64,000 nucleotides of DNA, taken from the NCBI GenBank assembly GCA_000091205.1, contig AP006486.2; one strand, 5' to 3'. How positions within the stretch are numbered: position 1 is the first letter of the stretch; every line of letters starts with the position of its first letter. Below the pieces are notes generated by a model that saw nothing but the letters and a program-made list of their open reading frames with translations, was not told where the DNA came from and ran no database searches. This DNA is from Cyanidioschyzon merolae. Taxonomy: Eukaryota. The position numbers were made by a program, and so were the translations under genes. Below are positions 16,637 through 59,520 of this stretch, piece after piece.

Positions 16637-17672
<1,036 letters not shown>

Positions 17673-30800: not shown

Positions 30801-31167
30801 CGTCAACGCGCTTGCAGGATCAAGACTTTCTTCCCTCTGCTTCAAGAGCAACAGGCACCAAAAAACTGGTACTACGTAAGGCACGGTAGAGTCCCAGCAA
30901 GGCGCTCAAGCAAGTGCGTTCCGTGTCTACACCAGGCCCGCAACGCGACCGATAGGAGCTCTTGTTTCGGGCCAACGTGATCACCCAAACTTGCAAAGTC
31001 TGTCCTTCACCAGCCTTATCCCAACAACAGGACTTTGTTCAAGCCCCTACTCTTGCCTCTCTTGTTGGTTAGTCGCTTCCGCAGGCGACTCAAAGTGCTT
31101 GTGTATTCAACAAAAGAAAAGCAGATTCTGATCAGGCTTTTGCCGCCGTCGCACGGCCGCCAAACGG

Positions 31168-31370
31168 ACACGCATCGACACGCATTCGCACGCATTAGCA
31201 CGCATTAGCACGCATTAGCACGCATTAGCACGCACCAGCAGGAATCGACACGCATCGACACGCAACAGTAGGCATCAGCACGCACCAGTAGACAACAACA
31301 CGTACCAGTAGGCATCGACACGCAACAGTAGACAACAACACGTACCAGTAGGCATCGACAGGCAACATTG
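31168..31370. repeat. Compound minisatellite: (cacgcattag)x5 followed by ~40-bp units (cgcaacagtagacaacaacacgtaccagtaggcatcgaca)
   Basis: Direct read. It lies ~370-570 bp upstream of the COPA start codon, in the COPA 5' intergenic region. Confidence 0.9.
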
Positions 31371-32627
31371 CTATGCGTACGGCACGCACCGCTGCGTTTG
31401 CTGCACATCAGGAGCAAGCTGGCCGACCTGAGCGGTGACGGATGTACGCGGAGCACAAAAATGAGTGCTGTGTTCCTGTATAAAGATTTTTTTCGAACTT
31501 TCATAGACGAAAAGTCATGAAAAACCTAGTGCAGAAAAAAAGACGGACGGATTCATTTGTAGTTCAGAGATTCTCGGTCGACTCTTTGCAGGAGCTCCTT
31601 TACCGTCAGATGGCTAGGATTCTTTACGGAATCGGGATCAAGATGATTTGCGACGCTACTCTCCTAGAGGGTCCTAAAATAAACGATAGCGTTATCCAGC
31701 GCATGCGTACAAGCCTCCAACTGTGTTCTTTCCATGCCTGTAGCAAGCTCATACCATGCAAGCTTCAAGTTATCAATCTTTCTGTTTCGGGCAACGCCTG
31801 TGTAGAGCAATTTGAGCAGCTGCATTGACGACGAAGAAAACCTCAACGTCAACTCTTGTGGGCTGTTTCACAAGATCATGCCGAAAGCTCAGTGAACTTA
31901 CCATGTTAAGCAATTGATTCCGTTCGTTAAACAAATCTACCAATCTTTATGGGTGGCGGCGAAACGGCATTCCGCTGCAGCGCGACATTTCGTAGAGGAT
32001 GGGCTCCCGGAGCCTTCCGTCTCTTCTGTTCGCATGGAATCATACAAATGACCGCAGTTCAGCAGTACGCGCTCCAGGTATCCGCACGCCAGCGATCTTC
32101 GCAACTGGGGCGAAGAGTGCTCCCCGCATACACCATGCGTATGCGCTGTGTTCTTGCGGGTCCATATGTGTGTCGTGTCGTTTATAGGATCCGGGGAACT
32201 TGCGGTTGTGCGCAATGGTTATCGGCAGCAGGGAGATCGTACGTTCTTCCATGGACCCGAAATGCGGCGACCACGACAACCACCGACACTTCCACGATCT
32301 TGCTCAGTTACCTCGATCCTCCTGGTGTCGTACGTCCGCCGGTGACACCCGCTAAGACGTTTACTCGCTTGTCTGGTGACCTGATTCCGCAGACAGGAAA
32401 CTGATTCCCCAGATACGGCGTCGTTGATAGTCTGGTACACATTCGACGCATCCGCGGACTAGCTGTACATCACAAGGGGGCGCGTTCAGGAGCCCCTGGT
32501 GTATCCAGTGTCACAGGCGATTCACATCACGATCAGAGCGGCATCCAGAGAAGCAGATCATGATCACATCGATTCCAATACTTGTTTACACGTGCAGTCT
32601 CGTACTAGTCTCGTCAAGATGAAGCAC

Positions 32628-34152: not shown

Positions 34153-35716
34153 TTACCGGAACGGTGCTCCGTAGACCACAGAGGCGGCGGCGTTCACCCA
34201 GCGCAGGCGACATGCAGCGCGCCCGGCCTGCAGCGCTGACGCAACCAGCAGAGGCGCTGCTGTCGAACGGGCATCTTCGACGACGCATCGACAATCCGAG
34301 TCAGCGTAGAATTGTTCTTGTCGTTGATGGTGTTGATGATGATGACGACGACGACGAGGATATTCGACTGGTTGTTCTCGACCGAGTCGCTGTGCATCCG
34401 CTTGTTCACGTTCGTGCAGTGAAATCGACGACGATAGCACCGCCTGTGTGGTTGCCGAGCGCTGGTGCGGCTCGGAGCGAGTCGCTTCCAGCGGGCAGAG
34501 CTCCTCCGAGCTCGTACTTGTCCAGGGTTTGCCAGGCATTGTGGCTGGCGGCTGTGCATTCGAGTCTGACCCCCGGGGTGCCATAGCATCAACTGGGGAG
34601 CTCTTGGCGCCGACGCACTGCGGACTCGTGGCGGCCGACAAGTGCTCCCACGTCGCCACAGTGAGTCGATCCAGGTCGCCGTCGGTGACATCCCAGAGCT
34701 GCGCGACGACGCCGTGGGCACCTGCGGCGAGCCAGTCGAGCGCTGCTCCGTGCGCATCGAGTGCCTCAGCGTGCTCCAGGAGGCCGCTGCGACAACCCAT
34801 GAGAAACACAGCCTGGGGCAGGGTCGTCGTTTGACGCACTAGGCGGCGTGGTTGTAGGTATGCTTCTCCGGTCCCGTGTCCGCAGTAGAGCAGAACACAG
34901 GGCTGTACTGCGGCCAGCGCTTGGGTGATGCTGGCGCGCTGGCTGTCGTCGGCACCAGCAGCGCTATCAGCATTTGCAGAAGCGGCTGCGGTTGCGGCAA
35001 GGTCGGTCCATCCGTACCGTAAGCGAAACCCGGGGTGATGCTCTAGGAGAGGCCGCAGGAAACGCTCGGTGCGGCGCAAGTCACCAGCTGGATTCAACAA
35101 GAAAGCTCCACGTTGCCAACCGGGTACCGCACTGCGAGTCAGGTGATGGTAGCGCTCCAGGGCTTGCTCGATCGCCGCACTAGCAGGGAAACGCATCGCA
35201 GCCGCGTGGCGCAGCGTCGGTGTCGACTCGAGCGGCAGCAAGTCGTGCTCCGCGTCCAGGAGCAGCAACACAACCGGAGCGACACCGGAATCCGAGCTGG
35301 TCGCATCTGGCACGCTACCGGCACCATCGAGCTGCTGCAGCTGCGATGCAGACGCGGCGTTCGACACCGAAGCCGCCAATGGCAATCCGCACAGGAGCGT
35401 CTCGAGACGCTGGTCGAGCCAGCGGCCCAGCTGCTGATCGAGGCGGGTGCGGGTGTCCCACCAGGCACGTCGCTCCGGAGCGGAAAGCGAGAGCGCCTCC
35501 GACTCCGAGGCAAGATGTGTTTGCGTGCCGGCCTGCAGCAGCTGGGCAAGCTCGCGCGCCAACTGCTGCGCGTCTGGCCGCTGGTCGTCGTGTACCAGCC
35601 GCTGGGCGTGCAGGTGCAGCACGGAACCCCGTGCGGCCTTGGTACAGCTGCATTCCGCGTGCTCATTGCAAGGCGTCCACGAAAGCGACTCGTCTGCCAC
35701 GTCATGTGGGGCATCT

Positions 35717-35752
<36 letters not shown>

Positions 35753-37386
35753 AGGGAAATGCTGCCCAATTGATCGACCAGGTCCGCGGGTGGTTCAGGT
35801 GCCGCGCCACTGCGCCACAGAGCGACGCGGGCGCTCTGGCCGCTCGTTGCATCGTACCGTAGCGCAATGATCATCCACCCGAGGGGAAGCAGTCGCCCGA
35901 GCCGCTCCAAGTACTGCAGGGGCGGCAATGTGTCCCAGACGGACGGCGCTGGCGCCGCATCTGCCTCAGCATTTGCGTCTGCGGCTTTCGCCCGACGCCG
36001 GAGCAGTGCACAGCGTTGCCGCCATCGCGGTGCGAACGACCGCAGCAGCGTTGCGGTACCGCACACACGAAGCGGCCTCGACGCAGGCACGTTCCGGTCG
36101 ATAGCAGCGACGCGAAGCATCGCAAAAGCCACTTCAGCGTAGATTGCGGACGCTACCAGCCAGGGCGATCCGCCCAGGTCGGGCGCTGGAATACCGGAAC
36201 GCGACCTGGACATGCCGTTTTGCAGCGGCAGCAGGTACGCTTTGCACAGCTGCCAACAGTGAGCGACATGGTCGTGGAGTTGTCGTGCATCTGGACGCTT
36301 TGCCATCGTGTATCGGGTGTGGCTGCTGGCAAGCCCCAAATACAAACCCAGCGCCTCCAAATACGCCGGCAAGCACTGCCCAGCAGTAGACGCAGCCAAC
36401 AGGGCCCGCAATCGCTGGGCAGCCTCCTGGAGCATCGCAGCTGCCGACGACGTGCTGTTGTGTTGATCACCTGTAGTCGAAACGAGGAGCGCCCGGTGCT
36501 GCTGGAGTTGCAGCAGCGCGTCCCACGGAAGTGCGCCGACTTGATCTGATTCAGAGTGCACTCGGCTGTGGAGTTGCTGCGCAACAAGCTGCTGCGCGCG
36601 TTCTGCGGCCTGTTGCAGTGCTGCCAGGAATCGCTGATAGAACGTCGTATCGCGCGGCGATGTCGCATTGCGTCGTAGCCAGTATAGTCGAAAAACTTGC
36701 TGCTGAATTTGTTGAACGGCCAAAGGTAGCGTCCAGAGTGAATACGCCGCGTTCATGCATCCATTCCACGCTCGGCAGAGTGCCACAGCTTGGCGTCGAC
36801 ACTGCTCCGCGAGTTCCGCTTGTCCAGCTCGCGTCCGCAGCAGGGAGAGCTGCATGAGGCTCCGAGAGCGCGCTGCGTCTAGAAGAACTGGCGCAGGCGG
36901 GCCCGCGCACAATGCTTGAATACGTTCATGGTAATAGAGGCCGTCTTTCCATGCCCCAAGGCAAATGCTAAGATTAGCGAGGAGATCCAACGAACGACAG
37001 AGCGCTCGCGTCGGGTACTCTACGACTGCGTCCACTGGCCTGAGCTCGGCGGCCTCCACTGGCCGGCTCTGGGTGGCGATGACCAAATCCCCAACGATTG
37101 CCGCCGTGGAACGAGCGAGTACGCTAGTGCCAGCGCCAAGCACGGGTATCGCCGGTGAAGGCGTCGATTTGCACGGGAGCAGTAGTTGCTGCGCCTGCAA
37201 CGCACATCCCAGGGCTCGGTTTGCGTGCTCGATGGCTTCCACAAGCAGGTGACTAGATGCGAGCTGTTTTGCACTGCGCATTTCAGAGTCATGCAGTGCT
37301 AGCATATCTGCAAGGCTTGCGTTGGCATCTGCGAGCGTTGACCTTGCTACCGGGGCCTCGAAACGATCCGCATCCTCCACTGAATC

Positions 37387-37420
<34 letters not shown>

Positions 37421-40400
37421 TAGGCTAGCATCCGCTGACCCCAAGTCGAAAGCGTTGCATGCGCCGCGGCTGGCGCCTCTAGAATGTCCGATTCGACAAG
37501 CTGGCGCAGACGATGTCGCTGCCGCATGACCTGATGCGTCCAGCCTAGTTGCTCGGCGAGGAGCATCGCTCGAGCCGCACACAGCGCTTGACGCCATCGA
37601 TCGCCGCGCGCGCATCGGTGCATTGCGTCCAAACAGTACAGAGCGGGTAGCGTGTGATCCGCCAGCTGGAAGAGGCGTGCCGCCACCTCGAAGGCGTCCC
37701 AGGCGAGCTCGCGCTGCCACCATACGAACCAGCAGTGCGCGATACATGCTGGTGACCGAACCTGTAACCATGAGTGACGCCAGCTCTGCACGAGATGAAA
37801 GAGGTGTCTGGCGGCATGCGATGGGGATTCGTCTACTGCAGAGGATGCCTGGGTAGAGTGTTCGTCGATTGCGTCCGTGGGCTTATCCGCTGGGGCGCTG
37901 GAGTCGTCGCTTGAACCCGGACATCGAAGCAAGTGCTGCAACATCCGTTCCAGAGCATCGTAAAGAGCCGCCAGGTCCCGTGTGAAAGCGTCGTCAGTAT
38001 CAGCTGGATATGATTCGGCTTCTTCGGTACTGCTTGGTGGCGTCGTTGTTTCCAACGGTGCTGCAGCGGATAGATCGGGTGATGTTGTTGCTGGTGTTGG
38101 TGCTCGTACGCAACGCCTGAGCACGGCACCGGGCAGGAGCGCACGCGCAACACATAGCTGTTGATGAAGCGTTTCGACGGCTGCAGATGTGCACCTGGGC
38201 AGCGGCGAAGCGGATAACGCTGGTTCCGGGGCAGCCTCACCGGCGCCTGTTGCACCGAGTCTGCGGGCCATTGTTCGCCGGACGGCTTCATAGATGACAT
38301 AGGTATCGTCTAATTGACTGGAAGCGCCTCGCGCATCCATGCTGTTCATGGTGTTGATGTTGGTGGTTGTAGTGGTGGCGGCGCGAACGCTGCGTCTCCA
38401 TACGCGCTCCATGGCGACTCCCAGCAGGCACAAGGCCTCGGTCGAGAACGAATCCAAAAAGGGCTGCGCGGCGTCCGATTTCGGGCAACCTCGTAAACCC
38501 GCTTGCACGAGACGAAATAAGGCAGCGCAGAGTTCCCATGGCGGTGGCGATGGCAACGGCGATGGCGGCGCTACAGTGCATGATTGTGCGATGGCCGTCG
38601 CGCGCAGCGATGCTTCTGGTGGAGCGTTCGATTCATGGAGTCTCCAAAGAAACTGACTGCACTCATCCCACAACAATCGTGCACTGTCGGGGCGCTGGGC
38701 ACGGACCCACGCCTGTAACGCATACGCGAGGCGCTGCAGGCCGGTGCGGATCCATTGCGCAGGCAAAGTCGAATGGTGGTCAGAGTCGGAGCCGGCACTC
38801 GGGGCGTCGCGAGGCCAGCTGAGCATCAGCGTATGCTGCCAGCAATGCGCTGCGGCCGCGTATGCGCTCTGGACGGAAGCATCCTGGCTGTTGGCGTCAG
38901 CATTTGATGTCGCACTCGCGGAGACGGTGCGAATGTGTTCATACAAGTCTGCAGCCGTGTTGTGAAGGACTGCAGCCGCCCAGGCACGCAGGCGCTCGCG
39001 CTCGCAAGTGTCTGCAGCTTGTCGCATACTTGATTGAGTGAGTTGCTGAAGCTGGTCTGTGGTGCTGGTAATGCTTTCCGCCACAGAGCTCAGCGTGCTA
39101 GTGTGCGTCGCTGGAGCGTGTTCCTCGACAGCGTTCGTACGCAGTCGACACACAGCAGCCCTCAGCTTCTGCTGCAACTGGGTTAGACACCACTGTGCGA
39201 GGCGCGGATCCATTGTGATCTTTTCCTGAGAAGCTGCCTGCACGACTACATGTACCAGGTATTCCTGCACGAGCGGCTGACGATGCGCCCGGCGCACGAG
39301 CACGCGCAGGGTGCTTGGTGGTTTCAATGCTCGCCAGCAGTCGCCAGGCTGCCTCTCTGGAATCGTTCCACCACGCAATGTAGCAGGATCGCGTAGTAAT
39401 AACTCGGAGAGATGGAGTACCTCTGTTGCTTGCAGCACAGTGTGCTGTTGCTGTTGCTGCTCGCAGCTGGCGTCATGCCGCTGGACTAGCGCATCGCGTT
39501 CAATTCGCCTTGCTAGCTGTTGGCATGCATTGGCGGATTCCGAGTTTGCCCAGTCCTCCAGGAGCCAATGAAGCATCCACTCGTCCTCGAGAACGCATGA
39601 CGCCAGCATCGCTCCGTCCAATGGAAGCAGTTGCTCCACGAACCAACCGAAGAGCGCGTTTCGGTCGTTCTCATCGCATGCCTCTGAGCGACCGATCTCG
39701 CATACGAGGCGCCCGAGGCAGCGCACCTGTGTCCGCGTGCGTTCCCCGAAACGAAGCGCATGCAAACGAGCTGAGATCCACAGCATGGCGCGTAGAAGCG
39801 CAGGCTCGCGGTTCCAGTAGTCGTGCATGAGCGTTTGCCAATGATGTAAATTCGACAGGAGTGCATCCCGGATTGTTTCGAAACACGATCGGGTGGTAAC
39901 CAGAGCGTGCGAACTTGGGCTCGTTCCTGCATCGTTCTGCAGTTCCGCGTAGATGCGCGTGAGCTTCGACATGACGGTGTCCGCGAGCCATCGGCCGAAT
40001 CTAATGTACAGCGAAGCAACTGCTGCATCCCTGGCCATGGTGTGGATTTCTTCCACGGAAACCGGGGCCAAGGCGTGCGTTGCCAAAAAAATCCTCAAAC
40101 CAAGGGCGGTTAGCTGCGCATCAGTGTCAGCGTCTACATCGTGGTTCATCCGCAAAGCCGTTGGGGCGTCGTTCTCGTCATGACCTTGGCCAGGCAAATC
40201 CTCGCAACGCTCAAGCGCCCACAGTACAACGGGCACCCACCGCCCGGCCTGAAGCGATGAAGCAGTGGCATTGAGCATCTCCAACTCGAAGCATTCCGGC
40301 AGCTTCCAATTCTGCCCGTTCGAGAGTCCCGACTCGAGAGCAGCAAGCGCATCACTCGCCAGAACAACCCCGACCTGACGCAGCCACGGCACTGCCATGG

Positions 40401-41109
40401 ATCCTGTTGCTCCCGCAGTGACTCGGGAAGTCGCGGCCTCGTCATGGATTGTAGTGTCGCCTCTGGGTGTTCCCATAGCGTCTGATGCTTGCAACGCTGC
40501 ATCATCTCTAGGTTCGGCTATACTACAAAAGCGTTTCTCGATGAACACCAAATGAACTGCCAATATCCACGTATACCAGTGCACAGCATCTAGTGACAGC
40601 TTCGTTGCATGCACGGATGCAGCGCACGCATCTAGACAGCGCAGCGCGAAAATCCCGCCAAACCACAAGAATCGCATGCACGCATCGCAGCACACGTATG
40701 CGTGCGCTTCACGCAGACGTGTGAGCGCTCGAGCAAGCTGCTGCAGGAACTCGAGGAGAAACTCCAGTTCAGCAGGAGTGTCTGCGCAGGTTACCGCCGG
40801 CTGGAGCGGTTGTTGCAGCCGTTGACGGCGAAAGGCGCAACGAATTCCAGCGTTTTCTGTACGGTCTCGAGATGCGACGCAACCAACTTGTTGTGTTGTC
40901 TCGGCTTGTTGGCAATGATGTTCAGCTAAAGTTTCAGACAAGGTCTTCAGGTAGCAGAGTGCCCACGTGGAGTCCTTGCACGGTCGCGTGCGCGAGCTAC
41001 TTCGTCGGCGATCGTCCAACAGGCACTTTGACTCGAAACACTTGAGCACTTGTTTGTTTTGCTCAGTTTGTGTCCCTTTTTCGCTGCATATCATACGATG
41101 CTTCCTCAT
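34153..41109 (-). CDS. ESP1: Separase (separin, peptidase C50), ~2318 aa
   Basis: The C-terminal caspase-like domain has the catalytic His in LLYCGHGTGEAYL and the catalytic Cys in AVFLMGCRSGLL. The extreme C-terminus has the conserved separase ending LRWVNAAASVVYGAPFR. The N-terminal ~1900 aa is helical repeat, as in separases. First in-frame ATG is at 41107-41109. The ORF track starts at GTG 41205. Confidence 0.85.
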
Positions 41110-41354
41110 ACGATGCCGTCTTCTGATCAGCGGCTGCTCCCAGAGTCTCCAGGTACTGGAGTAGCGCTCCCAGCAGCGGTTGTGTCGCAGCGGGCAGGCT
41201 GGCACGCACCGCGTCTCGCACTGGCGATTTGAACGGCTGCGGCTGACGTCGCGCAGGCCGTTTGCTCTCGGAGTACTTGTATATAGTTTAGTACTAATAT
41301 GTTAATATGTGTTCAGCCTTGAGAATCATACGAGAATTGTTTCTCTGACAAAAC

Positions 41355-41500
41355 ATTCACGCACGCACTGGTCGTTTCGTATGCTCTATGTGTCGCCAAG
41401 TGCCTGGCGTGAGCGCCCGCAATAGCGCCTATAGCACCGGTGTAGTCGTAGCTCGGATAAAGGATGACTATGCCGTGCACCGGAGAGTGTCGGCTTGAGA
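41355..41500 (+). repeat. Dispersed non-coding repeat, copy B (solo copy, 150-300 bp upstream of the separase start codon)
   Basis: Aligns to copy A, 5183-5350: cactggtcgtttcgtatgctctatgtgtcgccaagtgcctgg...tagcgcctatagc...gtgtcggcttgagagg. Confidence 0.65.
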
Positions 41501-44500
41501 GGATAAACTGATACACATTCAGAGACGCTTCCCAGCCGTTTTCGATCGGCCGACTGCCACCGGCTTCAGTTGCTCTTTGCACCATTCGAGCCTGAGAGGC
41601 TGCCCTACAAAGCTGGATTGCTTCAGCACCGCGTGTCTCGTCGTCAGCACCACATGTCGTCTGATCCTGATGGTGGTATTGAAGTCTTTGTTCACGAACT
41701 CCATGCGTTAGTTGCCACTAGTTGAATTCATCAATGCACGGATTCCTTGAAATCTTACCTTCTGTACCTCTGCAGGCTTGTCATCGTCAATTCGGGCAAA
41801 CACGTTTAAGCGACTGTCTCCCTTCTTCTCCGTCTTCTACGTTACCTGCTCTTCTTCTCGAAATGGTCGGAGAGAAGAGGATATTTTGGTTTCTTTGTTG
41901 AACCCGGTGTTGATTGCCCTCCGGGATTCCCGACTTATATGTCCCCAAGTTTTTCTCACATTTCTTATTTCTTCAAATGAAAGCACTTTTTGATGGCCTT
42001 CAGATGTGGACCTTACCCGACGAAGAAGGGCATGGAGAGGAAAGACGACACGTGCCCCCGTTTGTCACCGTGCCCCAGAAGCTTCAGCGATTCTCCCAGT
42101 TGAGCAGTGATTACGTTTCACGACAGAAAACTCTCCTTCGATGGGGTTGAATCACGTAGAGTGCGGAGGAATGCAAAACAGCTCTAGCCTGATGGAATTG
42201 GCAAAAGCTCGAACGCAACCGGAGTAGTGAAATGCCACGATGGCCAGTGAAGGGACCTCGCCAGACGTCAGGGGAAAGTCTTCAATGATTCGACGCAGTG
42301 GTTGATGCCATTATATGAGCCATCTCTACGAGCAAAATCTCGGGCGGCCAAATGAATCCGCTGCCGCCCGAACAAATGATGTCATCGTTCTCTGCGAGTT
42401 CGATCGTGCATACAACAGGCACCCCGCTCCGCGAATACCTGTACAGGTTACCATCGGATCGTCCGAGGGGAAGTTCATTGACTGGAAAAACAAACCGACG
42501 TTTCCGTGCTTCATACCGATCGCAACGTGCCTGCAACGCCATAATTTTGATTTCCGTCGAAGATGGCTGTGCATGCACTCGGACTTTCTTTTGCGACTAT
42601 ATCCCAGCGTTTTACGGGACCATACGAACAGGCTGCTGGGTACCGGTGACGCCCATGTCGACTCCTATTGTCGCATTTGCGTTCCATTAGGTAATCAACC
42701 GATCGCTTTCTATTCTTGAACGCAAACACGTTTTAAGAATATCGGGTTTTGGCGCGGAACGCATCACCTTCTTTCTTTAAATGTTCCTGAGCCATTCGGG
42801 TAATGTGTTATAACTGACCTGGAGGAGGAATGCAGTCCTCCTTGCACAGCTCAGTACAGAATCTATCTTAAATTCAATTCATCTACGATCTATACAGTAC
42901 ATGGCGACGTGATTTCAACCTCCTGCTATACACCCCAGCGGATGCGAAACAACATTGAGTTGAATGACTTTAAAACCCGGATGCATCGGCACCGCCAGCC
43001 TCCAAAGAAGCGATCAGCGCTCTGTTGCAGACGCGTGTACGTTCCGACTGTACTGGACCATTCTTGGCTTCGGGCGCAGCAGCTCGATCGATCCGAAGAC
43101 CTGTTGGGTAGCGAGTCTGCCTTTGGCGCTGGATTCGCCGGGTCTCGCTCGCGCAGGCAGAGCGCATAGACATGCAGGCGATGCGATACATCTACACACG
43201 TCGTTTCACGGTGCATGTGTCCTATGGATAGAAGCATCGCTCACGCGCCTGCTGGATCCGCGCTGCTGGTGAAGTTCGGCAAGGTTCCGCGAATCACGCG
43301 TTCAGAGTAACACTGGACAGGGGTCCGCCTGGAAGGCATTTTCAGCCCAGACGGATTTCTTCGTGCCTCTGGACGTGTGTGCAGTCTCATGTATGTGGTC
43401 GTTCAGTTGCGTCGAGTATACACTGCGGAATGGGGTTTTTTGGCGGCGGTCCATCGCGAGTAAGAGTAAGTCGCGTTGCCGCTAGGTATATCGGTATGCG
43501 TTTCTGGGCGTTTGGAAATGATGCTGGAGGCATTGAACCGATTCCCCAGAACACGCCCTACTGAAATTCAATGAGTTGTTCAGTACCCCGAGATACAAGC
43601 TGGCATGGCGATGACTTCATTGCAAACGCCCCGGCAACCGATGCAAATTGGCGTCCGCGCACAAGCTGTGCATGGAGGCAAGCTCCGGAGTCGATCGACC
43701 GACACAACTTGAAGAAGTAGGCGGGCACCCCAAAGCACACGTTTACGTGTGGCGCACCATCGGAATCAAGAATGATATGCTTTAACGGCGCGTAGGCCCG
43801 GGCTGCTTCTCGAGCCGACGGACGCGCGCGGACAAGCGGTCGATGCCGCAACTGCTTCCACAGGCACAAATAGATTTACGCGCTGATGTACATGCCGCCC
43901 ATTTGCACAGAAGGATCATCCCATGCGACAGACTCAGCTCTTCTTACTGCTTGTTTCTCGAGAAAATCTTTTGCTGTTACAGCACCGACGCTTCCCTGAC
44001 TCGCGATACCGCGTTCATGTGCATCCTCGGGGTATCACACGGGAGCACGGTATCGCGGTCGTCTTGGGTGCAGCGCGCATGAAGTCGTCCGACTCAAGCG
44101 CAGGCAAGAAGCAAGCAACAACTGCCGACGCTGCGCCCGCGTGCAACCCTCTGCGTCCCCGGCTCTGCCAGGGCCAAATCTTGACAACCACACAACTGAA
44201 CTATATGCAGGCGAAAAAAATCCTGTTCCTTCCTTTGAACAAACACCGCCGTCACTCTGAATTTGGCCGCAAATGAGCTCCAGGCGAGCCCCGAGCGCCC
44301 CTCATGCTGCAGCGAAGCGCACTTTCAGGGTCACCAACCGGCGATCATGTTCCTCGATCAACGGAACGTTTACACTGACCAGTCATCTCCGAGTGCGTGC
44401 TGTGGGTATCGGGAGCCTGACAGGCACCAGGCACGCTGCCGCAGGACCCAACCATAGGGGACAAAGCACATTCGTACTTGTCCTCGGCACTTTCCGACGC

Positions 44501-46634: not shown

Positions 46635-47289
46635 GTCCCAGACGTTACGCAGTTCGGCGCTTTGTAGCGGCTCGCAGCTCCACCTGGCTCGTGGAGCACG
46701 CACCGAACAACGGAAGCGCCCAGCACACCTGCCTCACCAGAACGCACTCGTCAACGCCCCAGAAGAAAAGTTTTCTATGAACTTTTGGTTGCAGGAATTG
46801 CGGTTGAAGCCGTCTATGCAGTTAGTCTAGAAAACTCGTCTGCTCGGTTCGGAAAACGCAACGCTCAAATGATAATGTGGATTTGTGGTGCATACAAAGG
46901 CCAGATGATGCATAACACATCAGAAGGATGGCCTGCGCTTGTGCCCAATGAAAGCAGCATACAGACCTGCTCGCCTTGCTCTTGCCATAATGTTATTCTC
47001 CAAACGATTTCTAGATGTGCGTCCTCGACATTCCAAGTGCAGGAATAAGGGCTTGCGGATGCGTATGTGGTTCAGGGATTCTCAGTTGGGTTTTTTTCGG
47101 AGTGGCTACTTCGATGATTTGCCACTGGAATTGGCGACCACACCTGTATCAAGATTATTCGAACCGCGTTCAGACAAGGGATCGTGCAATACCCGAAGTC
47201 ATTAACTGATTCATATCCAGAGACCTGTACGCTTCTCCTGTCCATTCGTGTACCATGATCAAATAATATAGTCTTTACGCGTTAGTTGG

Positions 47290-48100
47290 TTATGTTTCAA
47301 GGCGACTTGAGGGCGCCGCCATTCGCGTCATCGGCTTGAAGACGAAAGATATTCTGCGCCATTCCTTGACGATTTCATCACAAGTTCATGCCGAAAGTTC
47401 GATGAACTTTTCAAGTCAAATAATCGATTTTGTTCGCGGGATAAAATCACCTTTTTTCTATCTATGGAACGGCATTCGAGGTCTGCACGATACATCTCAG
47501 GGGATACGCGCCCCCGGAGGCACCCGTCTCTTGCGCTTGCATGGAAAATGCGCCGTGGACAATGACCTGACTCATCGCAGCGATCGCTTCGAGTGGAGCG
47601 AGCGTCACCGCGCAGCATGATGGATGCTGAGACGGATCGAAAGTTCTCAACTTGCTCTCCATTCTGGGTTCTCTTTCCGATACTTATTTGATCACGGACA
47701 ACATCGCGATCCACAAATCCTTTATCGAATGGAACAGAATATGCTTCGCTACGCAGCATTCAGAGCACCCGCCGAGTTGCTCGTACAGAAGAACCTAATG
47801 ATCGTAGGGTATATCACCGGGCACTGAAACGGAGAAGGGTATCGAGGTGAGCATTCCGTGCCGGGCCCGGGTACGAACGAAAGATCAGGCCGGCGTTGAA
47901 GCGCCACCGGGCGGCGCTCAGCGGATGATGATGAGGAGCAGGTTCCTTGGTCACATGGGAACACCTGACGACTCTCGAGTGTTACAGCTGTGAAAGGCGC
48001 ACCGAGGCCGTATGAAAACAAGATGTCATGGTTAACCGAAGCGTAGATGCCAACTTCTGCCTCCGCATGAAAGCCGTCGACAGCAACCGCAAGCAACGAT
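47290..48100 (-). repeat. Left arm of a ~800-bp inverted repeat pair, repeat-family copy 1; shows frameshift-interrupted coding potential
   Basis: Aligns at ~75-80% with the reverse complement of 51286-52100. Shared peptides are ...LGAPF(T/A)AVT... and F(D/E)KGFV(D/E)R..V.D.ISIG. It is read in several frames. Confidence 0.75.
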
Positions 48101-48429
48101 GCCTGAACTTTAACCCTGACATCAAGAGCCCTCGACTGCTAACAACGGAACCTGAGCGAGAGGAGAATCCGGCGTGTAGAAAGCCGGAGATAACACAGAG
48201 GAAAAGGAAGGCGTCACAGAGTAAGCCCGCACAAGCTGGTGTTGCTTACACTCTGAAAGGCCCTGGACTTGAGTGTATGCGGTCGAGTTCATGGACATAT
48301 CTGGTTTGAGGCTGGTGTGAATGTGAGCCCCAGCTCGACGCTGATTCCCGTCGGCTGCGCAGACATCGGTACGACAACTCCGCACAAGAATTCTAGATTC
48401 TAGAGCGCTCGACCGACGTGGTAACGGAT

Positions 48430-48693: not shown

Positions 48694-51285
48694 CCGCAGC
48701 TGCCGAGGCTTGGCCTCCTCCGCAAAACAATCAGCCTGAACCACGTGTTCTATCAACTTGAGATGGGCCAGAACTGGTGCCCAAAGCCTTGGTCGTCGAG
48801 TTCAACGTCCAGAAGCGAAAACAGCTGCAGCCTGCCTCCCTGTCTTTTGCCGAGCTACGCGGGTATCTTTTCATGAGTGCGCTTTCACAGGGCAACTCCG
48901 ATATGGGAAACATCGCGGTACCTTTCACTGTCACTGGGGTTCTGTGCTTCCTGCTTCGATGATTACCAGGACGAGTGCCATAGCTCGCTCTGGTTGTTTC
49001 CAGAAACCGTGCTCATGTCGAGCCGAATGTCTTTTTCCCAGTAACGTGCCATACAGGCTCCGGGTCTCATTCGGTTATCCGCTTGAAACAGAGCACCCAT
49101 GAACCGATTCTAGCGTGTCTCGAGCTCGACGCGCACACACGCTGGAGATAAAGCAACGCACTGGCACACGGAATCGTTGACAGGAGCCGTACCCAGTTAG
49201 AAAAAGCGCAATGCCTACGCTCTCTCTACATCTCGTTCTCTACCGTATTCCATAGGCACGAGCGACGCCTCATGTCCGAGCAATATCACGGTGGTAGGTG
49301 CCCGGGAACCGACTGCAAACGCTCGTATGCGCGGAAGCGTGCGCGCTCAGCATCGCTGGTGACGCTGACAACCCAGCCACTCTTTACAAACGATCCAGAA
49401 TTCCCGTCCTGATGGATTCGCTTTTAGACATCTTTTTCATCATCTGTATTCGCATGAAATTGCCTGAAAGAAAGGACTGCACCATGTAGCGTTCATGATG
49501 CATCGCCCGCCATTGCCGAGCATCGCACATGTCGTGCATCAAGCGAAGGATCCATGATTTGTTCTGTTTCCGCATTGGCCGCCTCATCGCGGCAAGCATG
49601 AGACGATGTCGTTACTCGCCTGGGCCGATCGAGCCATCGAGATCTATCTAATGCTCTTTACGAGAATCTGCGGGCGGTAGCGAAGCTGTCTGCAGCGAGT
49701 TCGACCAAGACTTCTTACGCGCCAAAGATGCCATGCGCCTGGCGCACGCTCGTGCACTGGCGCTTCGCAACGACTGCGCATTCCGAATAACCCAGTATCG
49801 CTTTGGATCGGGTAAGACGCTTTCGTTGTCATCTCCGGATGCCAGAAACGTTTTCCCCTGGAGAATCGGGACTCGAGGCATACCCCAAGGTCTGTTTGGC
49901 CAGCGTTTATGGAAATACACGCCAAGTCGGCTGGTGGCACATCTTCGACTGCCGATTTCTCATCTGTGAACGTACTTGCTTCGCGCGCGGTATTCGGGCG
50001 GGGATCCCCTGAAACGATGAACTTTTCAGGACCGCAGACTTCACCTTGCATCCTGCAGAGCGTCGAATCGATTGTGGTGTCGGCACGTCCCTGCTGCCTC
50101 CATTCCTAATAAACGCCAGATCGATCGCTTGCGAGCCGTCGCTCCGCTGGAGGTGTCGCGTCGACGCTGACTTGGGCTTATCGCAGCGAAAGCGTTTCGA
50201 GTCATTCGCACTCGCGCCATCAAAGCCGCACTTGCATATCTTGTTGAGGAGTTTCAAACGGCTCTACAACAGCCGCAGGAACAAAGCGACGTTCACGCGA
50301 GAATCTGTTCCGTTGCCTGTAACCGGGTACATCTACGCAGTGCTCGGTTCCTGTTGCTAGATTCCTCTTTTCTCGCGGCCTATGATTGATGGAACGAATC
50401 AGACTGCCCTGTATGCAGGAACGCTGTCGCTTATCAGGTCTACCGTTTTGCTTCTTTCGAAGAAGCGTCCATGCTCTGCGCTCACCGAAGCAGCATGTCC
50501 GTATGCAACAACTGCTCGTTCGATCGAGCGATGCCGCGGCTACGAGCCTGCCTCTGACGCTTGCCGCAATACCGGACGCGCTGTACAGATACAGGACAGC
50601 GGCGTTATCCCTTCGAGGGTGTAGGCACCAGGGTCCACAATGCGGTGCTTCAGGCACCGTCTGTCGTGAGCCTGTCCGGGGCCCAGTGCCCGAACAGTGA
50701 CGCATACCTCATGATGTGTTGGCGATATGTGTACCCAGAAGCTGATGGGTACGTGCTCGCCATCGACAAATCAGTGACGCGTACGCGCGGATGCATAGAT
50801 TCGGAGGTGGAGGATCGTAGAATTGAACCAGAGATCCCCGATTGTTTGATGAAGATCGGCATCTGGAAAAGCGTCCATCAACCAGTGGCGTTCTTCGAAA
50901 CTCCGCCAGCCACCCGCCACTGACGCTTTCCTTTGGAGACCTATATCAGTTCGGGCGATGCCCCAGGCACCGTGCCTGCCCTGAGCGTCCGCTACGACGC
51001 CTACGGCGCCGGTGCAGAAGCCGCACGATTCACGACGATCGGTGTTCGGATGCGGATAAACCCATGGCAGACTAGAATGGAACGGGTGCACGTACCCAAC
51101 TGGGGCTAAGACTCTAAAATTTGGGTCTCTTCCCATTGTCGTCTGCAACAGCCTTTTCAGGCTTGTTCTGCTACTAATTCCCCTTCGCCTCTCTTAGCTC
51201 CGGCTTTCATGACGCTGGAATTTCCTTTCCCGAAGCTCCGTTTCCAATAGTCGATGCATGCTGATGAAAGGGCTACAGTCCCAGT

Positions 51286-52100
51286 TTGCAGCTTCCGGCC
51301 GCTGTTGATCTATTTCGCTTACATGCGAAAATTGGGATCTACGACTTGCTTGTCATTTTCATCTTCTTTGTATACAGCCTCGGTGCGCCATTTGCAGCGG
51401 TGACCAGTGGCAATTTTCCGGCTTGTTTAATTGTGTCCACCAGATCTCCTCCTCCGAGGGATGCTCTGTGGTGCGTGAACGCTCTCTTCATCGCTCGATG
51501 CATGACCTTCGCGGTGAAAGAAGGTTCGCGCTGATACCCTCCTTTACTTCAGCGCCGCCGGCTGTCGTGACACGACCATCGCGGGCCATTTCTGTGCGAT
51601 TCTGTCGGCGAGCACGCTGTCCGCTACCCGCGCAAGCAAACGCTGTTTCCTTTGAGAAAGGATTTGTGGAACGCGGTGCTGTCCACGATGACATAAGCAT
51701 CGGATGCGGACACCCAGGCTGGTACCCAAGGTAAGATATTTCGATCCGTTTACGCTCCCTTTGCGCAAACAGGTGACGTACGGCACATTAGATGCTTTCG
51801 CTGCGAGGACTGACGACCGAGTTAACGATCCTTATTCATGCAATGAGAAAAGACGGGCGCTTCTTGGAGCATATCTCTCAAGCGGCACCATGAAACTGTC
51901 GACTATTGTCTCGTCGACAGCCATCAAGATAAGACGACTTGACCTTCGAGCGAAGTCGATTATTTGACGTGACATGTTCCATGAAATCTCGATCTGAGCT
52001 TGTGAACAAGTCGTCAAGGCAGCATGTCGCATTTTCTTTCACGTCCATAGAACAGCGGCGCGAATGGCTGCGCCCACGACTTGTCGTGAAACAAGAAATC
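51286..52100 (+). repeat. Right arm of the ~800-bp inverted repeat pair, repeat-family copy 2
   Basis: Partner of 47290-48100 on the opposite strand. The two arms are head-to-head and 3.2 kb apart. The spacer contains MoaD. Confidence 0.75.
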
Positions 52101-53039: not shown

Positions 53040-56000
53040 ATGGGTAACGTATGCTCTTGGTCAGCGGGTGACCCAGCGGAACGCCATTTGAAGCACGTTG
53101 TTAAGCAGCTGGAAGACGAGTATCCATGGGCACGGAAGCAGTGGCTACGGAAACAAGTCCGCGCTGTGGACGGCGATCTCGAGCAGGCGCGTATCGCCAT
53201 CGAGCAGAAAATTGGCGGGGCACGCCCTTTCGTTGAAGCGCACGTGTCGGATGTCTATGGCAAAGGTGGAGATATCTCGCACGGACCCGTCATCGAACGA
53301 GGGAAGGCGTACCGGAGGTCAGAGGGCGCCGCGAAGCGGAGCTCGCGCGCAAGTCACGCACAGCAGGCAGACGCAGGGCCCGACATGCAGCTGGTTCCAC
53401 CCTCGATGCCTTTACCCGGCACGTGGCCAGCCGCCGGGACACCGGATCCTTCCGAACGCGTGATAACGACCCTTTTCAATTGGAATGGTTCTGGGGAAGC
53501 TTCGCACCCTATTGCAGGCCTCATGCTGCGGCAACTGACTCGCATGCGTTTCATCGATGGCATTCGAAAAGCCCGAATGGCCTTGTCAGTCTCGAATATA
53601 CATGTCGAGACTTGTGCGGAGCCTCTTGAGGATGCACCAAGAGCCGCAGATGCGATCGCGTTGGAGGAGGACGCGCGCTCCCGCACCAGCGCTAGAGTCA
53701 CGCGTGCTGTCTCGAGCCAGCGACGTCGTCGAAGCACCAGTGTTCGTCGACGCACGACCGTGGGTCTCGATCAGCGCTATCGAGGGTCCGGGGGCGCGAT
53801 ACCCGCTGCTGTAAGCCCTGAACAGGCGTCAGCGGCTGCGTCCTCAGATTCTACTGGAATGGTACTTGTGCTAGACATGGTAACCTTATCTATCGTGACA
53901 AGTCTGTGCCGGTTGCAGCAGCTTCGACAGCTGGGCATTGATACCGTTCAGGTACTGAACGATCGGAAATCGCCAGTCGGACGAAACGGCTCGACACCAG
54001 CAACAACTGCAGCATCTGTGATGACGTTCACTTGTACCGATGCGAGCCGGAACGCGCACCGAGGTGATGCCATCAAGCCGCACATCTATTTCGTGACCTC
54101 AGTGCCAGCATCCGTGGAAGCGATGGCCTTGCATCTGGAAACCACTGCAAAGGCCAGACTGTCCGAAGGAGCGGACTCCATTCAAGATGCCGTCCTCATC
54201 AGCGGACATCTCCCCAATGAGGCACTCGGCCTTGTGCGTCAACAGCTGGCACACACGTCACTGCTTCAGCGACTGGGGTGCTTCATGGAAATTCGTTTGG
54301 ATTATGTAGCAATAGAGGAGGGACTTTTTCACTTTTGCCACCCGAGTGCACTGATCGATCTCTTTCCCGCTTCACGCAGCAAAACGGAGCGTCTCCGCCA
54401 GGAGCGTTGCCTTGCCATCGAAGCGCAACAACTTGCCTCGGTTTGCGAGGTAATGGCTGGTGTCGAGGACGGATCGCCCTGGCTCGGAAATGTGTATTTT
54501 GTCCGTGGCGCCGGGACCGAAGACCCCGCCTCGAGACTCGCGAGCGAAAGCCTTGTCGGCGGCGCGGCGCCAGCCGAACAACTCGCCCAGTTGCTTGCGC
54601 ACGAGCTGCGGCGTCGATGGGCATCAAACATGCCGCACGCCACCCAGGCTGCCGAGGCCTCCGTCTCGAAAACCGAAACAGGCCCTGCACTGACAAGCCG
54701 TTTGGCGGAGCTGGCTCCGGGGAAACGCCCCGGACCTGTAGACGTTCTGATTTGCGATCGAACGGTGGATCTGGCGACGCTGTTCATGCACGACTTTCAC
54801 TACGCTGCAATGGCGATGGACCTCTGCGAGGGATCGCAAAATGCCTGCGCTCGCGTCCGCATTCCCTTGACTGAAATCGGGCTGGAATGGGATCTCCACG
54901 AACCGATCAGCGCTGCGGAAGTCGATCTCGACGAGGAGCTGGATACGATCTGGCGTGAAGTGCGACATCGGCATATTGCGGATGCGGTCGATGCGCTTTC
55001 CGCGACCTTTGACGCTTATCTGGACGCGGAGCCTGGCGTTGCGGCAGTCATACGTCAACCCCAGAGGCGAAACCTGGACGCCGAATCGGCACAGCGTCCC
55101 GAATGGTACCGGATCCCGCAGGCAAGGGCGGCGTGCGCGACCGCCCAAGAGGCACTCGATACGTTCCTAGCACATTTCGCGCTTATAGAGGTTCTGTTGA
55201 CACGCTTCTCCGACTGGTCTCTGGACCGTGTCGCTGCCATGGAGCAGGATCTGGCCTGTTGTCGAACGAGTCGAGGCCGACGCTTCCGTCATGCACTGAG
55301 ACGAGCACTTGCTGTTGCCGAGCATCCGAACGTTCGCGTTATGGACAAGCTACGCGTCGCGCTGCTCTATCTGGTGACTCAGGACGTTGGAGCCGGTGAT
55401 CTCGAGCGTCTCCTGGAAGTTCTGCGCGGCTACACGATTCCGAGCTCCTTTACCAACGATTTCATTGATGGTGGTGTGGGCGACGCAAGGCGTGCGCCCG
55501 CAAGCATTCGGGCTGATATCGCCTTGCGGACTGTCTGGGACTATCTCAGTGTCGCACTTGGTACAGAGATGCGCAAGAGCCGAGCGGAACGGCGTGAACG
55601 ACGAGAGCGCTCTCGTTCGCGTTCGCGTTCTCGAACACGCCGCGACAGTTGGAGCAACCTATCCACTCGTGGGCCCGGCGATGAGGGCAGCGCTGACGAG
55701 GCTAGCGATGACTTTGAGCTCTGCCGCTACAACAACCGTCTGGCAGTGATCCTACGTCAGTTCGCGGAGAACGTCTTCCGGCCCGAGTGTGCGTATCCGC
55801 TCGCAACGGATCTTGGTGCGGCTCCGAGTCCCAAGTATACCTCACCGGTAACACCACGTTCTGGGGCGCCCTCTGGACTGAAGCCGTCTCCAGTGGTGTC
55901 GCAGACTCCGTTGCACGCCGCAGGTCAGAGCGGAAACGGCGCACTTGCTGGCGCGACTTGCGAACCGACGCTGATCGTGTACGTAGCCGGGGGTATCATG

Positions 56001-56132
56001 CCCAGCGAGGCCCGAGATGTATACCGTTTCGCGCAACGCACCGGTCGTGTCGCAGTTGCTGGTGGTTCTTGCATGCTCACACCACGGGAAGTACTGGCCC
56101 TGCTTTGCCGTAGAGAAGCCGTTGCGCCGTAA
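53040..56132 (+). CDS. Sec1/Munc18 (SM) family vesicle-fusion regulator with a ~270-aa N-terminal extension
   Basis: SM-family signatures are GMVLVLDMVTLSIVTSLCRL...GIDTVQVLN, KPHIYFVTSVPASVEAMALHL and the highly diagnostic VLICDRTVDLATLFMHDFHYAAMAMDL. The ATG is at 53040 (MGNVCSWS..., an N-myristoylation-like MGxxxS). An early helix, LEDEYPWARKQWLRKQVRAVDGDLEQARIAIEQ, resembles a CUE/UBA-type fold. Confidence 0.75.
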   Translation: MGNVCSWSAGDPAERHLKHVVKQLEDEYPWARKQWLRKQVRAVDGDLEQARIAIEQKIGGARPFVEAHVSDVYGKGGDISHGPVIERGKAYRRSEGAAKRSSRASHAQQADAGPDMQLVPPSMPLPGTWPAAGTPDPSERVITTLFNWNGSGEASHPIAGLMLRQLTRMRFIDGIRKARMALSVSNIHVETCAEPLEDAPRAADAIALEEDARSRTSARVTRAVSSQRRRRSTSVRRRTTVGLDQRYRGSGGAIPAAVSPEQASAAASSDSTGMVLVLDMVTLSIVTSLCRLQQLRQLGIDTVQVLNDRKSPVGRNGSTPATTAASVMTFTCTDASRNAHRGDAIKPHIYFVTSVPASVEAMALHLETTAKARLSEGADSIQDAVLISGHLPNEALGLVRQQLAHTSLLQRLGCFMEIRLDYVAIEEGLFHFCHPSALIDLFPASRSKTERLRQERCLAIEAQQLASVCEVMAGVEDGSPWLGNVYFVRGAGTEDPASRLASESLVGGAAPAEQLAQLLAHELRRRWASNMPHATQAAEASVSKTETGPALTSRLAELAPGKRPGPVDVLICDRTVDLATLFMHDFHYAAMAMDLCEGSQNACARVRIPLTEIGLEWDLHEPISAAEVDLDEELDTIWREVRHRHIADAVDALSATFDAYLDAEPGVAAVIRQPQRRNLDAESAQRPEWYRIPQARAACATAQEALDTFLAHFALIEVLLTRFSDWSLDRVAAMEQDLACCRTSRGRRFRHALRRALAVAEHPNVRVMDKLRVALLYLVTQDVGAGDLERLLEVLRGYTIPSSFTNDFIDGGVGDARRAPASIRADIALRTVWDYLSVALGTEMRKSRAERRERRERSRSRSRSRTRRDSWSNLSTRGPGDEGSADEASDDFELCRYNNRLAVILRQFAENVFRPECAYPLATDLGAAPSPKYTSPVTPRSGAPSGLKPSPVVSQTPLHAAGQSGNGALAGATCEPTLIVYVAGGIMPSEARDVYRFAQRTGRVAVAGGSCMLTPREVLALLCRREAVAP

Positions 56133-56863: not shown

Positions 56864-59520
56864 CTACTGCTCGTCTAGCCCGCTCGCACCAGCGCCATCA
56901 TTCGCCTGTTTCTGTTGCTGTCTGTCTCGTTTCCCTGGACGACTGTGTTGCTTTGCGTTCATCATCGTAAAGTAGAGACTGTAGACAGACTCTCGTTCCG
57001 CCGCACTAGCTGCTGCGTTTCCGCTCAGGTTAACACGTCTGCCGGGTGGACCACGAGGAACACGTTTCCGGTGCAAACGCGCATATTCCAAGTTGCGCAG
57101 CCGCTTCTCTTCCCGCAAGTCACGCCGTTGACGCATGAAGACTGACAGTGCTGCAGTGCCCGCCGAAGGGTACGGAGCACTGGAACGCTGCCTCGTTTCC
57201 ACTGCAGTTAATTTCTTCGAAGACGAAAGGAAAGCATATGAAGAATCTTTCGAAAAAGAAAGAGGTTTGAGTGATGAGATAAACATGACGTTCGATGGGT
57301 ACTTGGGAACGCCGCAACGCCACGAAACGACACCAAACGCCTTGCAGAAGAAAAACACTGCCGTGAGTGGTATTGTAGTGACGACGAACGCGTCTTGGAC
57401 AAACCATCTCCTGCTGACGGGCAGACGCCTCGCCGCCGTTCTCGACCGGCCACCCACGACTGGTTTCAACTTTTTCTCATATAGTTCTACTTTGAGAGGT
57501 TGTCCAACAAAATTCTATCTCGTCCACTCTGGAAGTCTATTCTCCAGCACCGCACATCTCCTTGTATTGATAGCGGCATTAATGTCTCGGTTCACAAACT
57601 CCATCCGTTTCTTGCCATCGTCGGTTGTACTTAATAATGCGAGTAGTCCACGAACTTTCGCTCTCCTTTCCATTTGCTCCTCCGTCAACGGTCCGTGCTT
57701 TGCTATTTCCTCAGGGCTCCGCTAATACGTTTCCATCTGGACCCTCTGGAGTGTACACCCCAGTTCATGGTGTGTATACGATGTTCGGAAGTCATCTACG
57801 GGCATCGTAACGAAACGCCGTGCGCACTCCTTGCACGTTTTTGTCGTTGGAGCTGGTGTAATGCCTTTTTTCGACGCCCAGCGCCCTGCTCCGTACGCTA
57901 CTACGAGCCTCTGACTTTCATTCTCCCTCCGGGCGCTCAACTGATTGAAAAAGTTCGAGAACGCCCGCTGCTTCCCACAACAGAAATTCATACGCAAACG
58001 AGCCCACCGGGGCTTGGTGGATTCTTTCCACAGGGCATCCCAATGAGCAGCGCGAACTTCCATGAACTCCCGAAATGCTTCAAAGTCGGTTCCTCGGCTC
58101 GTCACCTCGCTCAAAGCTTCCAGGTGATCCCTCACTCCTGAATTCCATCCAACGATTTTCATCCTCGCATTCATTATACCGGATTCCCGGTAATATCTAG
58201 CTCTTGACAACCTCAGCAGACGCTTGTCTTTATGACGTCAATTGTCGTCGACACTATCTTCCGCACGCTTGGGTACAGCGATGGTTATGATATTTGTGTT
58301 TCCGGGGTCCGCGCCAACGACAAAGCCGTTATCGTGCGCTTTCTGTGTTGCACGATCCACCTCCTTCTTTTCTCGATGCTTCGCCGCGCCAACGACAAAG
58401 CCGTTATCGTGCACTTCGTGTGTCGCAGGATCCTCCTTCTTCGTACCTTCATCCTTCGCCACGGGCGGAGCTGGACGATCTGTCTTCAAGCGCCGATAGT
58501 GTACAGACATGGCTACTCCATCGCTTTCGATCATCCCAGTGAATACCTTTCGCTTGCTCACTTTCAGACGTTTGAAATCGGCGAAATTCTTCTTCCAGTG
58601 CGTCTCCCGGCTTTCGCCGGAGAACTCCTCCCTGCTGACATGGAACTCGGGACTGATCTCCCTCATGATGCCGTAAAGGACGCCTGAATCGATAGTCACG
58701 AAATGTGACCTGATGTTGCACATTGGAACCACGTTGAAGCGCTTCCCCATTAGGAAAGCCTTCCGCCTCTCCCACTCCTCATTTGTCTCCTCATTCAGCT
58801 TCATTTCCGCCTTGCGTTCCAGCTCTCCGTCCAGAAACACGAAATAGCGCAGGGCGAGGCGATAGTATCTTTCCTTATCTTTTTTCGACTCTGATATCTT
58901 GTCTGTTGGACTCAGCAGCCCCAGTGCCGCACGGTGCTCTTCTACAACCGCACGGATGACAGAAGCTTCATTCGTGCTCTCGTTTGACGCCTTGTCTCCG
59001 ACGAATTCGATCTCCTGTTCATGCTGGCGATCGTTCGTGACGCCATTGGTAATCGCCCATTTTCCTTTGCGAGCGATGCCAGGGTACAGCGCAAACACGG
59101 CGCGTATCATGAAGCGTTCGAGGTTCATAGTCAAATGGTTCTTCAGGTTCGTGATGTACTTCATCGCTCCGTATGTGTAAATGCACCAGTCAATTTTGTA
59201 TCGAGTACCGTCGAAGCTCTAAAAGGGATGTTTTTCGTGGAGGGCATGCACTAGCACACTTTCCCTCGGCGCTTCCGCTGCACCAAGCATCAGCTGTCGA
59301 ATAAAGGTCTTATCGAGAAACCCGTCCGGAATCCCGACCGTTTCCACCTGCGCCACGTCGCGATACATCTCCCTCGCCATATGCATCAGTCCTGACGACG
59401 CCTTGACAATACTCTTGGAGTATGACGCAACACTGTTTTCGATAGCGTCTCGCAGCTTTTCCCTGTACGGATCCTTGATATGTTTAAGAAGACAGACTTT
59501 GACGACCTACTTGTCGCACA
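56864..59520 (-). pseudogene. TnpB/Fanzor-like RuvC nuclease gene, copy 2. It is colinear over ~880 codons with no frameshifts, but has three in-frame stops
   Basis: Minus-strand translation is colinear with copy 1 across the N-terminal region, RuvC-I ([18 protein letters not shown]), the Zn-finger and RuvC-III (NRDINAAIN). Stops are TGA at 58238-58240, TAG at 57722-57724 and TAG at ~57515-57517, where copy 1 has Leu (TTA), Gln (CAG) and Glu (GAG). RuvC-II reads LVVAYGAGRW, so the catalytic Glu is replaced by Gly. There is an internal 20-codon tandem duplication near [18 protein letters not shown]. Confidence 0.65.

Follow-up and report, generated by a model that had tools for sequence, protein, structure and literature searches.

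Stringent LINE/SINE pairs have a 3' tail in common, as in eel UnaL2 and UnaSINE1 and in CR1-like LINEs with tortoise SINEs. The repeats of the red alga Cyanidioschyzon merolae have been described in other terms. Its genome was found to hold 26 non-LTR retrotransposons, together with 253 transcribed copies of a 3.2-kb repeat that carries a WSV486-like ORF and makes up ~5% of the genome (Nozaki et al. 2007, PMC1955436). The WSV486-like ORF was then recognised as Fanzor1 and the element named CMe-1A, at ~3 kb and ~150 copies that are ~80% identical to their own consensus (Bao and Jurka 2013, PMC3627910). The 5' 635 bp of CMe-1A is a separate repeat, TE-N2_CMe, with ~70 copies; the two showed no TIRs, their target-site duplications (TSDs) were not determinable and their class was given as unknown (Bao and Jurka 2013, PMC3627910). 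Fanzor1 genes usually sit in DNA transposons (PMC3627910).

We analysed a stretch of 64,000 nucleotides of C. merolae DNA (the window), in which an earlier note had described three dispersed copies of a non-coding element of 170–200 nt, a candidate MITE, SINE or small transcribed element. Our main conclusion is that this element, read on the minus strand, very probably belongs to the conserved ~330-nt 3'-terminal module of a Cyanidioschyzon non-LTR (LINE-type) retrotransposon, a tail that its reverse transcriptase (RT) would read and through which TE-N2 would be copied in trans. The element is the best-conserved core of the CMe-1A 5' region. Its sequence family is already catalogued, as TE-N2_CMe, CMe-1A and the 253-copy repeat, so the flagged element is not a discovery. 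The relevant features of the window are as follows.

2617–4707, minus strand: ABCB1 ORF, exact match to an annotated C. merolae 10D protein of the 513,455-bp chromosome.
5095–5381, minus strand: tail module, copy A (profile HMM positions 4–291, E=8e-75).
5095–~7700, plus strand: CMe-1A-type element A (colinear with the reference unit at L001:8000–12800; tblastn with P0008).
34153–41205, minus strand: separase ORF, 2,350 codons (Peptidase_C50, E=2e-37).
41357–41523, minus strand: tail module, copy B (profile HMM positions 10–179).
41522–41764, minus strand: Fanzor C-terminal fragment fused directly 5' of the copy B tail (tblastn).
50815–51027, minus strand: tail module, fourth copy (D), 5'-truncated and diverged (profile HMM positions 81–284, E=8e-14).
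53040–56132: Sec1/Unc-18 protein ORF, exact match to an annotated C. merolae 10D protein of the 513,455-bp chromosome.
57336–59926, minus strand: Fanzor1 unit C, frameshifted (inverted repeats I1–I9 against gene A; tblastn with P0008 at 58888–57371).
59927–60257, minus strand: tail module, copy C (profile HMM positions 2–291 at 59937–60257, E=7e-78).
59927–61023, minus strand: 5'-truncated non-LTR retrotransposon (LINE) containing copy C, 1,097 bp.
60918–61013, minus strand: what is left of the LINE ORF that includes the RT, its final ~32 codons (tblastn, L004 RT as query).

The three copies described earlier were all recovered, and copy D, absent from the earlier list, was added; all four lie in one shared orientation. 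Pairwise alignment of A, B and C spans ~150–185 nt. BLASTN gave 80.8% identity over 78 bp for A against B and 69.3% over 179 bp for A against C (E=2e-13 in both cases), with no direct hit between B and C at E<=1e-3. Divergence, first put at 15–25%, is therefore ~19–31% or more by BLASTN, and the unit is not 170–200 nt but ~330 nt long, extending ~125 nt further left. Similarity among the copies is far beyond chance. The flanks had been called unrelated, which does not hold for all copies: C lies within the 1,097-bp repeat, and A continues into a ~2.6-kb Fanzor element. Copies A and C do sit beside Fanzor-like genes, on the 5' side of both. These genes are mutually inverted (I1–I9), and the element copies are direct repeats (D12–D14). 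The element thus lies 5' of both Fanzor genes but in opposite relative orientation, which argues against a fixed gene-plus-element unit.

Each window copy has a different context. In element A, an antisense TE-N2-like part that has lost ~570 bp internally precedes a frameshifted Fanzor1 gene (5656–7690); the T-run of copy A is degenerate (TTCCCTGCCCG). Copy B lies in the separase 5' region as first described, ~140–320 bp upstream of the gene and with its RNA-sense strand running in the separase direction, and has a ~115-bp internal deletion before the terminal remnant TTTCTCTGACAAAAC at ~41335–41349. It is not a solo copy, however, and abuts the Fanzor C-terminal fragment (tblastn, query residues 446–527, 41% identity; translation ..RMEFVNKDFN..GRSKTAGKRL); repeat homology here covers 41367–41989 and reaches ~41990. 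Copy C ends in an A-run, seen as a T-run on the plus strand at 59927–59934. The stretch 59927–61021/61023 is 85–88% identical to more than 15 copies elsewhere, and those copies continue into an RT ORF, of which the window remnant matches query residues 415–446 of the L004 RT at 72% identity. The A-run of this LINE fragment lies directly against Fanzor unit C, at the unit's 5' boundary GAATCGCGCTCGG. A TATAAA box reported ahead of copy C lies inside the element and is peculiar to this copy, the family consensus there being GTATCCATCAAACC. Reading copy C as a LINE inserted in a 'type D' Fanzor element was considered and rejected, the far flank showing no homology.

A clean TSD was found at none of the four window copies, which are old, deleted or composite. 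Copy C represents a LINE that has lost its 5' part, A the tail end of the TE-N2 sequence within a CMe-1A, B a chimaera of tail and Fanzor fragment upstream of separase, and D a truncated relic. The window also holds another old dispersed repeat of ~1.2 kb (47023–48244; also 8099–8257, 24741–24884, 31868–32039 and, inverted, 51146–52093), which lacks a convincing ORF and matches copies in at least 40 of the fetched loci at 63–68% identity. Tandem arrays of a 52-bp unit (approximately seven or more units, 17238–17733) and of a 10-bp CACGCATTAG-type unit (31149–31368) are unrelated to the tail module.

A degenerate 30-nt pattern taken from the core was used to scan hot-spring metagenomes, and at least 120 stretches matched. 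Profile searching gave 161 matches, 147 of them strong, which form 69 clusters at <94% identity among the matches listed; across these 69 clusters the flanking genes are unrelated. Near-identical metagenome counterparts were seen for copies A (L002), B (L050) and C (L032). When copies were placed on a common coordinate system, ~330 nt were common to nearly all of them, after which homology thinned out. The unit has a sharp end on one side only, at the junction of TTTTTTTCA and TGGACAAAACGTTT on the plus strand, ~125 nt left of the element as first described. Read on the minus strand, this 3' terminus is ..AAACGTTTTGTCCATGAAAAAAA, followed by unrelated flank in most copies. The A-run end was reached by 150 of 171 profile HMM hits among the matches listed, and start points at the opposite end of the 171 hits scatter over model positions 0 to 240. 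One retained end with scattered starts is a pattern of 5' truncation. Two subfamilies are set apart by a T-rich insertion. Head-to-head pairs of the module also occur (L014 1923–2506, with others in L066, L094 and L112; L046 818–1367), joined at, or overlapping across, the palindrome AAACGTTT at the module terminus.

Beyond ~330 nt the module leads into three unrelated continuations, and many copies simply stop. Family 1 (window copy A) continues into the Fanzor element, family 2 (copy C) into a long repeat of which 59927–61023 is a 1,097-bp piece, and family 3 (copy B) into the opposite-strand C-terminal fragment of a Fanzor gene. On the minus strand, opposite to that of the earlier note, family 2 carries a LINE-type RT upstream of the module (..YVCFIDFQKALDTV..LLFADDVVLL..). 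The motifs YVCFIDF..LLFADDVVLL include the FADD motif, Pfam RVT_1 matches at 5e-14 to 5e-22, and the ORF ends ~650 nt short of the module terminus. This RT was present in L004, L061, L066, L067, L088, L090, L112, L114 and others, ~10 or more distinct places, and in every family-2 copy with sufficient sequence; the RT-bearing copies all come from metagenome relatives, and within the window the RT ORF survives as 32 codons only. The annotation of RT relatives in C. merolae 10D reads 'retroelement, alive'. Pfam found RVT_1 alone and no endonuclease domain in the degenerate ORF pieces of L114, which do not make up an intact element.

Target-site duplications were sought at the module boundaries. 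The flank following the A-run was repeated at the 5' junction over at least 8 nt in 12 of 30 truncated copies, compared to 1.6% of mismatched controls. An unbiased search returned exact TSDs of variable length, 12–23 nt, around elements of 144–646 bp. Three were read by eye: ATCGATACGTGTA in L067 (628-bp element), ATCACGAGCTGCG in L022 (646 bp) and ATCGATCCTGCGGT in L122 (224 bp). ATCG or ATCA directly after the A-run begins about half of the clear TSDs; such junctions were seen in L067, L022, L122, L097, L056, L074, L017 and L012. On the junction sequences, this suggests a target preference that may reflect sequence-preferring nicking by the LINE endonuclease. The earlier note had allowed for a local relic of only three copies lacking TSDs; many copies and clear TSDs were found instead.

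On the joint evidence of RT ORF, A-run and TSDs the functional strand is almost certainly the minus strand, and the orientation first given has to be reversed. We propose that the LINE RT would begin target-primed reverse transcription at the module tail on a nicked target, often one starting ATCG. The RT would also act in trans on non-autonomous RNAs that share this tail, much as partner LINEs copy SINEs. Elements of two such kinds occur: the ~635-bp TE-N2_CMe and, along with it, the 'front' of the Fanzor1 element CMe-1A with its tail antisense to the Fanzor gene; and the family in which a Fanzor C-terminal fragment forms the body.

The non-autonomous copies compare closely with the published repeats. 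Family-1 copies of 628 and 646 bp are bounded by 13-nt TSDs and have the same tail end, and the published TE-N2_CMe measures 635 bp. Eight clusters of this size stop at reference positions 932–994, several with TSDs. Organism, position in front of the Fanzor element and size class (628 and 646 against 635 bp) all agree, as do the occurrence of copies apart from Fanzor, the lack of TIRs and a similar divergence (~70–85% identity); the match rests on the published descriptions, not on the Repbase consensus sequence. The present data differ from those descriptions in that the module corresponds to the LINE 3' end in reverse complement, and an A-run and TSDs of 12–23 nt are present in young copies.

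Sharing between TE-N2 and the LINE is limited to the tail, over ~210–340 nt; the TE-N2 5' half and the LINE 5' end are alike over only ~18 nt, which is not significant. Since the tail alone is shared, we infer mobilisation in trans by analogy with stringent LINE/SINE pairs. As in those pairs, an autonomous RT element occurs with short non-autonomous elements that have only the last few hundred nucleotides in common with it, and 5' truncation, TSDs and a conserved, stem-loop-forming tail are seen. Unlike them, TE-N2 has no tRNA, 5S or 7SL head, the common tail is long (~330 nt), its recognition by the RT is a prediction, and one of the partners bears a Fanzor gene in antisense. By ARAGORN, L067, L022, L046, L025 and the window all lacked a tRNA-like head, and Rfam gave no match for the whole window at the gathering threshold or for the L067 TE-N2 copy at E<=1. 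With no detectable tRNA, 5S or 7SL head, TE-N2 falls outside the strict definition of a SINE.

The interpretation given in the earlier note is partly supported. SINE-like comes close for the 628–646-bp copies in tail, length and TSDs, but fails for want of a Pol III head. The absence of tRNA, 5S and snRNA signatures was borne out, and the same Rfam and head searches speak against an independent small-RNA gene. A dispersed, non-coding mobile-element module was correctly recognised, as was a terminal sequence shared with the Fanzor-carrying family (CMe-1A/TE-N2_CMe) that also occurs without a Fanzor gene. Some copies are Fanzor-linked, and most have no Fanzor gene nearby.

RNA folding of the tail was assessed on 44 copies. 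The minus-strand consensus fold paired 82.3% of cells compared to 80.1% in shuffles, with 99 double-sided changes against 48; neither the pairing value nor the double-sided count was reached by any of 500 shuffles. The best helix joins columns 100–108 and 133–141 of alignment A4, with an inner helix at 112–114/127–129 (60136–60172 in copy C). Covariation across copies thus exceeds shuffles, but only modestly, and subfamily structure inflates the signal. A perfect 6-bp stem noted in copy A is present there and competes with the best family helix; as a family feature it fails (69% of cells paired, 68% in shuffles). The plus strand folds about equally well. Assigning the strand from G-U against A-C pairs (392 vs 159) was rejected as an artefact of predicting structure on that strand; when pairs common to both predictions were counted the numbers were symmetric, and so structure does not identify the strand. 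The predicted folds support a hairpin-forming tail.

The Fanzor units neighbouring the module were also compared. Close homologues of their ORF number in the hundreds among hot-spring metagenomes, on contigs that hold further module copies. Pfam gave no hit to the window Fanzor ORFs, and the family was recognised through homologues and the precomputed DUF8286. A 75-bp tandem repeat lies within the coding region (..ATQKVQDN.VVGA..; window 58309–58458, with equivalents in gene A, L001 and L003), and its unit number differs among copies. Two units, L129 1116–3757 and L135 1–2641, encode an identical 449-aa Fanzor protein and are 98.4% identical in DNA over 2.64 kb, at different genomic places (beside IF-2 and beside DAO oxidase). 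No module copy lies near either. An identical Fanzor at two tail-less places indicates that the Fanzor unit moved recently on its own.

These units raise the question of whether full-length CMe-1A is itself a LINE-dependent retroposon, which we regard as possible but unlikely. A long RNA antisense to the Fanzor gene and ending in the tail would then be copied by the LINE RT. In at least eight distinct full-length copies the amplified unit stops on its left precisely at the A-run terminus, with unrelated flanks beyond, as one would expect had the whole unit been retroposed with its Fanzor gene antisense. TE-N2 joins the Fanzor unit through its 5' end at a constant junction, which independent insertions would not give and which supports retroposition of CMe-1A. 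Tails of retroposons abut the Fanzor unit 5' boundary in at least four arrangements. A single example, L114 2505–7001, has a ~4.3-kb LINE directly in front of and antisense to a Fanzor unit. Its position and orientation are those of TE-N2 in CMe-1A, and it was counted in favour of CMe-1A retroposition. Counted against it were the lack of TSDs at seven full-length CMe-1A copies, the bimodal sizes (~0.63 or ~3.4 kb, not a graded truncation series) and the recent mobility of tail-less Fanzor units.

Other explanations of the module are very unlikely. The best of these is an exapted regulatory module, a promoter or 5'-UTR element conserved for driving neighbours such as separase or Fanzor, which we consider very unlikely for the family. 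Copy B does lie 140–320 bp upstream of separase and is kept at >=94% identity in a relative (L050), but L050 comes from a very close relative, so its retention there is uninformative. Copies A and C sit on the 5' side of Fanzor genes, and the 3.2-kb repeats are reportedly transcribed (PMC1955436); yet the TATA box is private to copy C, orientation to neighbouring genes is inconstant and, among the matches listed, flanking genes are unrelated across the 69 clusters. Conservation is as expected from repeated copying of master elements, not from per-site purifying selection. A regulatory role can hold for single copies without changing the identity of the family.

Slightly less probable still is the end of a cut-and-paste DNA transposon or MITE, with solo copies as left-over ends. 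MITEs are likewise short, dispersed, non-coding and multi-copy, and DNA transposons are the usual home of Fanzor1 genes (PMC3627910). A single sharp end is common to elements with different interiors, and head-to-head pairs exist (L014, L046). Against these points, the other unit end has no matching inverted copy, in agreement with the lack of TIRs reported by Bao and Jurka (PMC3627910), and TSD length is not fixed but ranges from 12 to 23 nt. The A-tail, the one-sided truncation and an RT ORF in cis are equally at odds with this explanation, and MITE, proposed in the earlier note, no longer applies.

Equally unlikely is that the module encodes a Fanzor guide RNA (omegaRNA), with the sharp terminus being the transposon end where the guide begins. 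Like an omegaRNA, the module is conserved, non-coding and Fanzor-linked, stops exactly at a mobile-element or repeat boundary and has some conserved helices. In family 3 (window copy B, L034, L066 and L124) the minus-strand module even follows directly after a sense Fanzor C-terminus, the canonical position. This placement, at the ORF 3' end, on the same strand and at the transposon end, is met in relic family 3 only. In CMe-1A, in contrast, the module lies ~1.4 kb 5' of the Fanzor ORF and antisense to it; its orientation relative to the Fanzor gene is opposite in other copies, and most copies have no Fanzor gene nearby. The module is also the 3' end of an RT-encoding LINE with A-tail and TSDs, and young Fanzor units with identical protein lack it entirely. 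We therefore dropped the omegaRNA explanation on the strength of the RT ORF, the TSDs and the tail-less young Fanzor units. The Fanzor unit moreover has conserved hairpins of its own at the expected omegaRNA place, its 3' end, at the following positions.

Window ~7560–7700, plus strand: Fanzor unit 3'-end hairpins.
Window ~57300–57450, minus strand: Fanzor unit 3'-end hairpins.
L001 11470–11690: Fanzor unit 3'-end hairpins.

Two small hairpins here keep pairing through compensatory changes (GGCGAG/CTCGCC, GGCG/CGCC, GACG/CGTC). Their forms are GAC..GUC and GGCGNG..CNCGCC, followed by the conserved ACTACTGTACAC and then the unit boundary. The 3'-end hairpins are a better candidate for the omegaRNA or right end than the flagged module. 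A small protein-coding exon was also rejected, the module holding only short overlapping ORFs that are unconserved between copies, in an alignment with indels.

We return to the LINE tail as the preferred identity of the module. The flagged sequence is a commonplace piece of a mobile element rather than a new RNA gene, and the new point is modest: its classification as a LINE 3' tail with TSDs. The cited papers left the class open; with the module identified as the 3' tail of the algal LINE in reverse complement, repeats listed as 'unclassified, no TSD' would become LINE-tail retroposons. This classification explains why the module occurs beside Fanzor genes, beside RT genes and alone, and steers the search for the Fanzor guide RNA from the module toward the hairpins at the Fanzor unit 3' end. 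Were CMe-1A itself retroposed, an RNA-guided nuclease gene would be spreading by retrotransposition, not on a DNA transposon, and antisense carriage on a retroposed RNA would be a new route of spread for TnpB-family nucleases in eukaryotes.
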